Assembly (NCBI GenBank): GCA_037441385.1 | Contig: JBBISH010000096.1 | Coordinates: 1-25,348 of the forward strand | Direction: 5' to 3' | Source of the DNA: Myxococcales bacterium | GTDB taxonomy: Bacteria > Myxococcota_A > UBA9042 | DNA: 25,348 bases | Shown: in pieces, positions 1 to 3,000 of the stretch | How the letters are laid out: every line of letters starts with the position of its first letter | Numbering within the stretch: the stretch's first letter is position 1 | Made by a program: the position numbers

Positions 1-3000
1 AGTGTCCATGTTTTCATCGGTTTCCCCCCCGTGTCGTTGTCAGCTGCCCCAAGAGACTTAGTGCCGAGTATAGCGGATGCCCAAAGCAGTGCGTCGGCTC
101 TGTTCACAATTCTACATGCTCTCGCCTGTATGCCTATGCAGGCAAGTTAAATGAACCCCGTCTGATTCACGCCTGTACGGCTTCTCTGACCCGGTCTGCA
201 ACCGGCGAGAATCAGGCGGGGACCCCGGTTCGGGCCCGAAGAATTGCCCGAGTTTTCGATCCGATTCGGACCGAACTGGTATTAGCGAAATTGCGTTAGA
301 ACGAGTTGCCAATCGTGAATTCGAAGGCCAGCGGCTGCTCACCCGGGCGCGGGTTGATCGGCACGCCCCACTCGAATCGCAGCGGACCGACGGGCGAAAA
401 CCAGCGAATGCCCCAGCCGACCGACATGCGGAACGGGAATCCACTTTGGCTCAAGATCGACTGCCCCTCGCCGAAAGCGTTGCCGATGTCGAAGAACATC
501 AGGCCGCGCAAGTTCATGGGCGCCTTGATGATCGGCACCTCGATCTCGTTGTTCAGGTACAGCTGGCGCGTGCCGCCGATCGTGAAGGCGGATAGCGTGG
601 CTGCCGGATCGCCCGAGGAGGGCACGGCGATCTGTGGACCGAGCGAGTTGCGCGCATAACCGCGCACGTTGAAGATGCCGCCCACAAAGAAACGTTCGAA
701 CAGGGGCACCACCTTGCCCTTGGGCGCCTCGATCACACCACCGACCAAGTTGAAGCGCAGCACGCCGTCGAGCGGCAGCGGGAAGAAGCGGCGAATGCGC
801 GCGGTGAAGCGCGTGAACAAGTTGTCGCTGCCGATGTACTGGTTGGCCCACTCCGCCGTGCCCGATACGTACCAGCCGGTCGTGGGGAACATGCGATCGT
901 CGCGCGAGTCGAAGCTGAGGGTGCCGCGCAGCGAGCTGGTAAAGCCCGAGCCGAAGTAGTTGGCGATCGGCACGTCGGTGCGGCCCGACAGGCCGCCGAT
1001 CTTGGTCACGACCTGTTCGCCCGTGTAGCCCAGGTCGGCGATGAGGGTGTCGGTGATGCGGTAGCCCCACGAGAAGCCGCCGCCAGTGGCGCGCCGCGAG
1101 AAGTCGGTATACAGCTGGTCAAACCGGTACAGGTCGATCGAGAAGGTGACGTTGCTGTCCAAGAAGTACGGCTCGAAGAACGAGGCCTGGAACACCGTGC
1201 GGATCGACGACAGCTGGCCTTGCACGCTCATGCGCTGACCGCGGCCCAAGAAATTGTCCTTGGCGATCTGCATGGTGGCGATGAAGTTGTCGATCGACGA
1301 GAAGCCCATGCCCACTTGGAAGGTGCCGGTGGTGCGTTCTTTGACCTCGACGACCACGTCCAGCACTTGCGCGATGGCGGTGGGCTTGGTCTTGATCTCC
1401 ACCTTCTCGAAGTAGCCCAGGCGTTGGATGCGCGCCTGGCTCTGCTGCATCTTCAGCTCGCTGTACAGCTCGCCTTCTACAAACGTCATCTCGCGGCGGA
1501 TCACTTTGTCGCGCGTCGAGGTGCCGCCGGCCAGCGAAATCTGGCCAAAGAAGCACTTCTTGCCGCGCTGGACGCGGTAGGTCCAGTCGACGGTGCGCTT
1601 GTCCATGTCCGGGACCGAATTGTTTTCGACCGTGGCGTGAGCGAAACCGGCATTCTTCTGCAGATCGCGAATCTTGTTGCCGTCTTGCTGCACCATCGCG
1701 TAGTTGAAGATGTCGCCGGGCTTCAAGGCGAGCCCCGGTACGACCTTGTCGGCCGGCTCCACGGAATCGCCTTCGAGCGCCACCTTGCCCACCCGGAACT
1801 GCGGCCCCTCGTGGATGCGGATGGCCACGGTGATGTACTTCATGTCCGGAGAAAGACTGACGATCGGCTCGTCGACCTTGGCCTGAATGTAGCCGCGGGT
1901 CAGGTACAGGTACTGCAGAATCTGGACGTCCATGTCCAGGTTGTCGGGCTTGAAGTTGCCGCCCTTGCCCACGATCGACGTGACGCCGCCCTCTTGGGTG
2001 CGCAGCACGGCCTTGATGTCGTCGTCGGCAATGCCCTCGTTGCCCAGCAATTGCACTTCACGCACCTTGACTTCGGCGCGCTCGACCACGTCGAACACCA
2101 CCTTGACTTGATTCTGCGGCTGGGGCTCGACGTGGTGGCTAACGGTGGCCAAGAAGAAGCCTTCGTCGCGGTACAAGTCTTTGATCTTGGTCACGTTGGT
2201 CGCAGCGTCCTGCGGGCTATACAGGTTGTTGACCCGCAGATCGATGACCTTATTGATCGACTCGGTGCTTTGCTCGGTGTTGCCGCGCACCTCGATCGCC
2301 GAGATCGACGGCCGCTCGAGCACCTGGAAGCGCAATTCCACCGGCGTCTCGGTCGCATCCGGCTTCTGCGGCAAGCGCTTGAGGCCCACGCGCACGTCGT
2401 CGAATAGGCCCAACTGGTACAGGCGGCGCACGTCGTCGGCCACCATTTGCGGATCGACCGCCATGCCTTCGCGGCTGCGGATTTGACCCATGGCGACCTT
2501 GCTTTCTACGCGCTCTAGACCGGCCAGGCTCAGCTTGGCGATCACCAACTGCAGCACCGGCGTCTCGTCGGGCAAGGGCTCCGTTCCGTCGGCGGGAGCA
2601 CTGTCGTCGGCGGGTGCCTCGTCGTCTTTCTTATCTGGATCGGGCCGCGACAGTGCCCCGCGGCCAAAAAGCGAGTCGCCATCGGCATAGGCCGCCCACG
2701 GCAGCACTGCCAACGCCAGCGCGAACGCCAGTGCGAGGGACCCCAACCCGGGCCGCGGCCTGCGCGCGCTCATGCCGCCTCGCTGGTGAACTTGCCGTCG
2801 ACCATTCGCGCCACGCGCCGCATCCGCGCCGCCAACTCCTGGTTGTGGCTGACGACGACGAACGCGGTCCCGGTTTCGGAATTGAGTTGCTCCATGAGCA
2901 GGTGCATGTCCTCGGCCGTGCGCCCGTCCAGGTTGCCCGTCGGCTCGTCGGCCAGCACCACCTTGGGCTGCATCACCAGGGCCCGCGCCAGCGCCACGCG

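Follow-up and report, generated by a model that had tools for sequence, protein, structure and literature searches.

The Myxococcales bacterium represented by GenBank assembly GCA_037441385.1 is very probably a diderm whose outer membrane, though genuine, lacks lipopolysaccharide (LPS), and the gene content of almost every genome of its class, UBA9042, points to the same conclusion. In Gram-negative bacteria, LPS is usually seen as the lipid that defines the outer membrane and is nearly indispensable to it, and to our knowledge the well-studied LPS-free exceptions are few, each with an identified substitute. The survey's finding from which this work started had presented the organism as a new lineage for a phenomenon already known from Sorangium, and that is what it is. 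Among the matches listed for LPS-lacking myxobacteria, Sorangium alone is represented, and those listed for Polyangia with lipid A or lpxA include nothing relevant. Titles and abstract openings on lpxC in Myxococcota likewise offer nothing relevant, and those that make up most of the record on UBA9042 present no work on LPS, as is also the case for PMC11821767.

Outer membrane assembly genes

The window – the whole stretch of DNA that was analyzed, 25,348 nucleotides of contig JBBISH010000096.1 – carries close to its start a bamA gene (296..2773, reverse strand) coding for an Omp85-family outer membrane protein insertase of 825 aa. Its stop codon lies 295 bp short of the contig end. The product matches TIGR03303 at 601.3 bits against a cut-off of 297.15, in an alignment that spans model positions 2-741 of 741 and corresponds to a full-length BamA. 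Pfam scores are 200.7 bits for the Omp85 domain (residues 507-825) and 181.5 bits for POTRA, with four separately scored POTRA stretches; a fifth is suggested solely by the full-length TIGR03303 alignment. A signal peptide and an acidic linker precede the POTRA repeats, and the beta-barrel forms the C-terminal part; in the translation the N-terminus is signal peptide-like and the C-terminus reads GNSF, with the terminal aromatic residue F. It would insert beta-barrel proteins into the outer membrane, and candidate substrates are encoded in the genome, namely three TonB-dependent receptor barrels and a second Omp85 protein. The gene for the latter (1201 aa) lies on contig C5, where it adjoins and follows a gene for TamB (1493 aa).

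Two genes related to the lipoprotein-release transporter LolCDE are located directly upstream of bamA on the same strand. The product of the lolD-like gene (2770..3576, reverse strand), an ABC ATPase, scores 293.5 bits with TIGR02211 (LolD), slightly below the cut-off of 307.75, and 126 bits with ABC_tran; its annotated start is probably too far upstream, as residue 45 is the first to align with the family model. The second gene (3482..5914, reverse strand) encodes a long LolC/E-like permease of 810 aa with MacB_PCD and FtsX domains, which scores 277 bits with TIGR02212 (lolCE; cut-off 362) and contains an additional N-terminal stretch of some 290 aa that is hydrophobic, as well as an insert rich in Pro, Ala and Glu in its periplasmic domain. 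Its homologues in the relatives G073 and G065 are 800 aa and 630 aa long, respectively, and the gene order lolCE-lolD-bamA is common to both of these genomes and the window. BamA, the LolCDE-like genes, the second Omp85 protein with TamB, and the TonB-dependent receptors had all been listed in the survey's finding, and all were recovered here.

BamA is present in all 107 class genomes, exceeding the curated cut-off in 100, and TamB is present in each of five good genomes. MlaA – the lipoprotein that takes phospholipid out of an LPS leaflet – was found in none of these five, a weak negative given that the model matched in only 2 of 14 control genomes. No sterol or hopanoid cyclase, as a possible membrane stiffener, was recognized in a motif scan: the 4632 open frames with a length of 400 aa or more each contain three QW-type motifs at most, which is weak evidence.

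Absence of lipid A and LPS transport genes

GCA_037441385.1 is a 6.6-Mb genome in 221 contigs, estimated to be 90.9% complete. Absence was called from six-frame profile searches against curated cut-offs, using models that each matched in the E. coli and Caulobacter controls; for lipid A and Kdo synthesis the set comprised LpxA, LpxB, LpxC, LpxD, LpxK, WaaA and KdsA, with LpxH/I/G, LpxL, KdsC and KdsD outside it. Nothing in the genome exceeds the cut-offs for LpxA, LpxB, LpxD, LptD or LptF/G, or for LpxK, WaaA, KdsA, LptD_N/LptA or LptC, and LpxC, also without a match over its cut-off, has a best score of 15 bits. Searching the whole assembly by tblastn with the LpxC, LpxA, LpxB, LpxD and LptF/G proteins of relatives returned, at E <= 1e-3, a single hexapeptide-repeat match and nothing else. 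Two KdsA-like candidates proved to be DAHP synthases, and a KdsB-like candidate is a cytidylyltransferase-PseG fusion adjoining PseC. The reported lack of genes for lipid A synthesis and LPS transport is therefore confirmed by these searches, which extend it to LpxD, LptA/C and the Kds genes, previously judged from annotation tables alone. What such searches register is the loss of recognized homologues rather than of the molecule, and non-homologous enzymes are conceivable.

The same genes are missing from nearly all relatives. LpxC, LpxD, LpxA and LpxB are each over the cut-off in 2 of the 107 class genomes, and LptF/G in one (G047) and in none of the other 106. LptD is over the cut-off in none of the 107, a weak negative considering that the model matched in only 2 of 14 controls. 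LpxC is found in none of the ten genomes of the genus and in 148 of 301 genomes sampled from the phylum, reproducing the earlier counts for class, genus and phylum; because the model matched those 148 genomes, the search evidently sees the phylum's own versions of LpxC. In the five good class genomes, one of which is a single contig of 9.3 Mb, there is no match to LpxK, WaaA, KdsA, LptD_N or LptC, and the single-contig relative is also without LpxA, LpxB, LpxC, LpxD, LptF/G and LptD. Its gene order is informative as well: the usual block is bamA-skp-lpxD-fabZ-lpxA, and in this closed relative it ends after skp, with no lpxD-fabZ-lpxA to follow. Downstream of bamA in G065 are skp, a rhomboid gene, unknown genes and efp, and in G073 unrelated genes, with no lpx genes at either location.

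Loss of LPS genes is not special to the class. The remaining 153 of the 301 phylum genomes have no LpxC, and outside the class this is true of 96 of 243, in agreement with the earlier observation that other families of the phylum also lack it. Large families outside the class in which both LpxC and LptF/G are missing include f24 (0 of 26 genomes) and f30 (0 of 18).

Exceptions within the class

When contaminant-like contigs are set aside, LPS genes are missing in 17 of the 18 class families. The exception is G047, a single fragmented bin (95% complete, 4% contamination) and the sole genome of the deep family f9, in which LpxA, LpxB, LpxC, LpxD and LptF/G are spread over six contigs. These contigs have the same G+C content (61-68%) as the remainder of the bin, and contamination is not shown for them. 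The only BamA-like genes of G047 code for a 520-aa Omp85 protein with one POTRA and an Omp85 protein of about 1100 aa. Because G047 carries LPS genes on contigs of bin-like G+C, the class is not uniformly LPS-free, and the loss, described in the survey's finding as class-wide, holds for nearly all genomes but not strictly for the whole class. Nor does the description of LpxC in the class as single hits fit G047, with its set of LPS genes.

The other exceptions are on contigs of 1.6-6.7 kb and look like contaminants. Contig G069:C123 (6.7 kb) has a G+C content of 50.6%, versus 55.6% on the bin's own bamA contig, and carries a second, partial bamA together with lpxA and lpxB; G078:C167 is 2.6 kb long with 60.7% versus 66.7% G+C, and G072:C132 is 1.6 kb. 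In G030, an LpxD-like acyltransferase gene (NF002060, 272 bits against a cut-off of 207) adjoins genes for a deacetylase and a glycosyltransferase; it was rejected as a lipid A gene, having a context of sugar modification and occurring in one genome only.

Alternative explanations and the outer leaflet

The absences could in principle be an artefact of binning, with the LPS genes on unassembled or unbinned contigs such as one beyond the contig end after bamA. The incompleteness of this genome, the position of the contig end just past bamA, and the occurrence of Lpx genes on very short contigs in four bins would all fit such an artefact, but it is extremely improbable given that at least 11 unlinked families are missing together, that of the 68 class genomes with a completeness of 90% or more just 2 have LpxC, and that none of the tested families is present in the single-contig 9.3-Mb genome or in bins made up of 20-60 contigs. 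The class counts (105 of 107 genomes without LpxC) together with the single-contig relative speak strongly against bin incompleteness as the cause, as had been argued previously, and the bamA downstream regions of G065 and G073, which are intact and free of lpx genes, speak against lpx genes hidden past the contig end. At that location the LPS-free reading draws on relatives, because this genome is incomplete (91%) and its contig breaks off within 295 bp of bamA, just at the usual site of lpx genes.

If the absence is real, the outer leaflet could consist of the substitutes used by Sorangium cellulosum, sphingolipids and ornithine lipids. Sorangium belongs to the same phylum and its outer membrane is LPS-free, as cited in passages of PMC6372800 and PMC12971839. 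Some class lineages have genes resembling serine palmitoyltransferase (SPT), with one of the 107 genomes over the cut-off (G046, 557 bits) and four close to it (G035, G023, G024 and G019, 389-397 bits), and OlsB-type domains are present in 12 of the 107, including 7 of the 13 members of family f2. These substitutes are nonetheless very unlikely, in that the sole gene of the alpha-oxoamine synthase (serine palmitoyltransferase) superfamily in GCA_037441385.1 encodes Kbl, which scores 629 bits with TIGR01822 (cut-off 493), with all three SPT models reaching only 260-328 bits against cut-offs of 500-670, and 26 of the 107 class genomes have no alpha-oxoamine synthase gene at all. The OlsB/OlsF-type domain (PF13444, a model that matched in only 2 of 14 controls) is also found in none of the 36 genomes of family f1 and none of the five good genomes; this domain constituted the ornithine lipid test, with OlsH-type synthesis, glycolipid synthases and ether lipid genes outside the search. 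The earlier statement that no substitute lipid is evident is upheld for family f1, to which GCA_037441385.1 belongs, but not for every family, as a minority has SPT-like genes or OlsB-type domains. Another explanation, which we regard as unlikely, is that enzymes with no relationship, or a very distant one, to Lpx and Lpt produce and export an amphiphile that is new or resembles lipid A. In the relatives, many of the genes around bamA have no family match, G030 has its acyltransferase cluster, and GCA_037441385.1 encodes PseC and PseG, for synthesis of a nonulosonic sugar; but in this genome there is no positive evidence for a new amphiphile, and the G030 cluster occurs in that one genome only. 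Moreover, the LPS-making relatives in the phylum use canonical enzymes scoring 100-360 bits, so that joint rapid divergence of all of the enzymes in one class is unlikely.

We thus return to an outer membrane that is LPS-free, in which BamA would insert barrels into a bilayer without LPS, with the bilayer lipids delivered by TamB/AsmA-type bridges and lipoproteins by Lol. The outer leaflet in family f1 would then be an ordinary glycerolipid – a phospholipid or glycolipid – with surface proteins or polysaccharide; glycerolipid is most likely as the default, because neither SPT for sphingolipids nor OlsB/OlsF for ornithine lipids is encoded. A broader proposal can be made only tentatively: the class and about 40% of the remaining phylum may have an outer membrane without LPS, the Lpt bridge or MlaA, with family f1 also without known substitutes (sphingolipid or OlsB/F aminolipid), its leaflet being either plain glycerolipid (near-symmetric and served by TamB-type bridges alone) or an undescribed amphiphile from unannotated genes, and LPS loss being common and repeatedly tolerated in environmental diderms.

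Comparison with known LPS-free bacteria

Thermus, Deinococcus and Thermotoga are LPS-free diderms, and in these genomes, used as controls, the LpxC, LpxA and LpxB models are silent and the LptF/G and LptD_N models match. The class resembles them in having BamA and TamB without the lipid A pathway, but the loss is more complete, because LptF/G and LptD_N are unmatched too. The outer membrane of Sorangium cellulosum So ce56, reportedly described by Keck and colleagues in 2011, is said to contain sphingolipids, ornithine lipids and ether lipids. Like Sorangium, the organism studied here is a Gram-negative member of the phylum whose outer membrane lacks LPS, in this case as judged from genes, but there is no SPT in GCA_037441385.1 and no OlsB/OlsF-type domain in family f1. 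Sphingomonas and the Sphingomonadales have an outer leaflet of glycosphingolipid, according to passages of PMC13721041, and Sphingomonas is similarly a free-living diderm without lipid A, although it depends on serine palmitoyltransferase, which is missing in GCA_037441385.1. The same passages list Borrelia burgdorferi and other spirochaetes as LPS-free, and the title of 10.1101/2022.12.21.521298 indicates that Borrelia keeps an LptD homologue. Borrelia shares the diderm envelope, BamA and TamB-type systems, the lack of LPS and a cell surface on which other components predominate, but differs in its Lpt components (in the class LptD is matched in 0 of 107 genomes, LptD_N and LptC in 0 of 5, and LptF/G in 0 of 106 apart from G047) and in being a reduced parasite, whereas the organism of GCA_037441385.1, with its 6.6-Mb genome, is free-living.

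The gene content of UBA9042 thus suggests that a species-rich, free-living class of 18 families, with 105 of 107 genomes without LpxC, has dropped both the synthesis and the transport of LPS, and that at least one of its families shows no recognizable substitute lipid. If a member were cultured or enriched, it would provide a natural system for defining the minimal lipid set that supports BamA-dependent barrel insertion, for asking how an outer membrane is supplied by TamB-type transport alone, and for studying a permeability barrier without LPS. Assumptions based on LPS – including endotoxin assays, predicted polymyxin sensitivity, and the 'Gram-negative' feature sets used to annotate metagenomes – would fail for much of the phylum.

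bamA and the outer membrane machinery

The bamA gene (296-2773, minus strand) encodes a canonical BamA of 825 aa, whose match to the equivalog TIGR03303 covers model positions 2-741 of 741 and scores 601.3 bits (cut-off 297.15). Pfam places POTRA repeats ahead of an Omp85 barrel at residues 507-825, and the translation begins with a signal-peptide-like stretch, includes an acidic linker, and ends in ...GNSF. Upstream and on the same strand are genes for a LolD-like ATPase (2770-3576) and an unusually long LolC/E-like permease of 810 aa (3482-5914), together with lysS and metH. 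The permease is twice the usual length, with ~290 additional hydrophobic residues at its N-terminus and a Pro/Ala/Glu-rich insert of ~150 aa within the periplasmic domain; region 3482-5914 is 70% G+C with strong AT skew, and the homologous ORFs of G073 and G065, two relatives of the same class, are 800 and 630 aa long. The lysine-tRNA ligase ORF (5918-7762, minus strand) has ~110 surplus N-terminal residues ahead of the family match, which may reflect a start codon called too early.

In many Gram-negative genomes bamA is followed by skp-lpxD-fabZ-lpxA-lpxB. Because the contig begins just 295 bp beyond the stop codon of bamA, this stretch cannot be judged from the window's bin alone. G065 has lolCE-lolD-bamA-skp and, beyond it, a rhomboid protease gene, four genes that match no family, efp, and epmA; in G073 the genes after bamA are a PHA-granule-like one and others that lack annotation. 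With no lpxD, fabZ, or lpxA after bamA in either, the contig break, as far as relatives can tell, conceals none of the missing genes.

The assembly (6.63 Mb, 221 contigs, 90.9% complete, 1.2% contamination) has five Omp85-family matches and three TonB-dependent receptor barrels, and BamA is present in 107/107 genomes of the class, named UBA9042 in the survey's finding, and is above cut-off in 100. Contig C5 has a TamB gene (1493 aa) and, immediately after it, a POTRA-Omp85 gene of 1201 aa (positions 6866-14968 of locus L054, G000:C5:74000-92000). This Omp85 protein is far longer than a typical TamA, and similar Omp85 genes of ~1100 aa recur across the class.

Absence of lipid A and LPS transport genes

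Six-frame profile searches of the window's genome, judged by curated cut-offs, revealed no LpxA, LpxB, LpxK, WaaA/KdtA, LptD, LptF/G, LptD_N/LptA, or LptC, and nothing above cut-off for KdsA, LpxC (best 15 bits), or LpxD (best 49 bits, to hexapeptide repeats). Every model matched in E. coli and Caulobacter, and those for LptF/G and LptD_N also in Thermus, Deinococcus, and Thermotoga. A model-independent check, in which the whole assembly was searched by tblastn with proteins translated from relatives' loci – LpxC (two), LpxD (two), LpxA, LpxB (two), and LptF/G – yielded only a 42-bit hexapeptide match at E <= 1e-3.

Two KdsA-like matches (97-117 bits) are DAHP synthases (NF006421, 450 bits; TIGR01361, 311 bits), and a KdsB-like match is the cytidylyltransferase half of a PseG fusion adjoining PseC in a pseudaminic-acid cluster (locus L027, G000:C147:6296-9622). 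The genes at L027 show that a nonulosonic sugar is made although there is no LPS to carry it.

Across the 107 class genomes, the window's own included, LpxA, LpxB, LpxC, and LpxD are each above the curated cut-off in two and LptF/G in one. LpxC is found in 2/68 genomes with at least 90% completeness and at most 5% contamination, and in none of the 10 genomes of the genus. LpxK, WaaA, KdsA, LptD_N, and LptC were also sought in five good genomes, namely that of the window, G073 (50 contigs, same family), G065 (9.3 Mb in a single contig), G033, and G056; none has any of them, and KdsB is present in G033 alone. LptD (0/107 class genomes) and MlaA (0/5 good genomes), the lipoprotein that takes phospholipid out of the LPS leaflet, are weaker negatives because among the controls their models matched solely in E. 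coli and Caulobacter.

Exceptions within the class

We read the LPS genes of three class genomes as contamination. In G069, LpxA and LpxB share a 6.7-kb contig of 50.6% G+C that also bears a second, partial bamA, and the bin's own full bamA contig is 55.6% G+C; LpxD of G078 is on a 2.6-kb contig (60.7% G+C versus 66.7% for the bamA contig); and LpxC of G072 is on a 1.6-kb contig in a bin of ~1000 contigs with 4% contamination, which also has the most alpha-oxoamine synthase copies (five) of any class genome. G047, the sole genome of family f9 (95% complete, ~900 short contigs), had been taken in the survey's finding for a single hit, which is incorrect: LpxA, LpxB, LpxC, LpxD, and three LptF/G pieces lie on six contigs, whose G+C (61-68%) overlaps that of the remaining contigs. 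Its assembly contains no class-type BamA, the best matches being a 520-aa one-POTRA Omp85 and an Omp85 of ~1100 aa. G047 may be a true LPS-bearing branch of the class, or the bin may be mixed.

One class genome, G030, has a full-length LpxD-like acyltransferase (locus L006, G030:C1:93017-96955, ORFs 781-3520), which exceeds the cut-off of the subfamily model NF002060 (272 bits versus 207) and not that of the equivalog. On its large contig it is flanked by a BshB/LmbE-like deacetylase and a GT2 glycosyltransferase, and the cluster may represent an acylated amino-sugar pathway other than lipid A.

LPS genes in the phylum

A phylum sample of 301 genomes, evenly drawn and each at least 90% complete, has LpxC in 148 of them and LptF/G in 94. 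Families f1-f18, which make up the class, contribute 58 of these genomes, and only G047 has LpxC or LptF/G; outside the class LpxC is present in 147/243 and absent from 96. Two large families, f24 (0/26) and f30 (0/18), lack both LpxC and LptF/G. In family f20 a low-scoring LpxC-like gene (137-177 bits) is found in 17/23 genomes (e.g. G108, G186, G218, G326) and LptF/G at E <= 1e-10 in 0/23; either the Lpt system of f20 is divergent, or its LpxC relative has a different role. The loss of LPS genes therefore extends widely through the phylum and is not peculiar to the class.

Candidate replacement lipids

The alpha-oxoamine synthase family is represented in the window's genome by one gene, kbl (TIGR01822, 629 bits versus a cut-off of 493), on which three serine palmitoyltransferase models score just 260-328 bits against cut-offs of 500-670. 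A serine palmitoyltransferase model is passed in 1/107 class genomes (G046, 557 bits), four further genomes have similar genes at 389-397 bits, and 26 of the 107 lack the family entirely. The OlsB/OlsF-type domain PF13444 occurs in 12/107 class genomes, seven of them among the 13 of family f2, and in 0/36 of the window's family f1, with a model that matched only 2/14 controls. A crude motif scan of the window's genome, a weak search, detected no sterol or hopanoid cyclases. No known substitute lipid is encoded in family f1, and by default we propose that the outer leaflet may consist of glycerolipid.

Two other window genes could act on envelope lipids. One (15883-17985, plus strand) encodes a 700-aa membrane protein with a periplasmic sulfatase/phosphotransferase domain weakly resembling LtaS, YejM, and choline-sulfatase, and the other (12038-12784, minus strand), adjoining sohB, a small protein with the lipid-binding START fold. 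The 1090-aa product of 18969-22241 (minus strand) combines calcium-binding EGF, Dictyostelium CTDC repeats, and a fibrinogen-like YCDxxxxGGGW domain, the make-up of a eukaryote-like extracellular repeat protein.

A probable LPS-free diderm lineage

Outer membranes without LPS have been described in S. cellulosum, with LPS present in Cystobacterineae (PMC6372800, citing Keck et al. 2011), and ornithine lipids are mentioned for Sorangium (PMC12971839). Borrelia, with surface lipoproteins, and Sphingomonas, with glycosphingolipids, are given as LPS-free diderms in a 2026 review (PMC13721041), and a preprint describes an LptD homologue from Borrelia (10.1101/2022.12.21.521298). All nine lipid A genes are missing from several Gram-negatives listed by Opiyo et al. 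2010 (PMC3087551). The literature found, with subscription journals and supplementary tables outside the search, contains no such report for UBA9042 and no phylum survey.

The survey's finding of outer membrane machinery with no lipid A or LPS transport genes is confirmed and extended, and this lineage is very probably an LPS-free diderm. Whereas Thermus, Deinococcus, and Thermotoga still match LptF/G and LptD_N, the Lpt loss here is complete and without remnants. The lineage goes beyond the known cases in this complete loss, combined with a family, f1, that encodes no known substitute.
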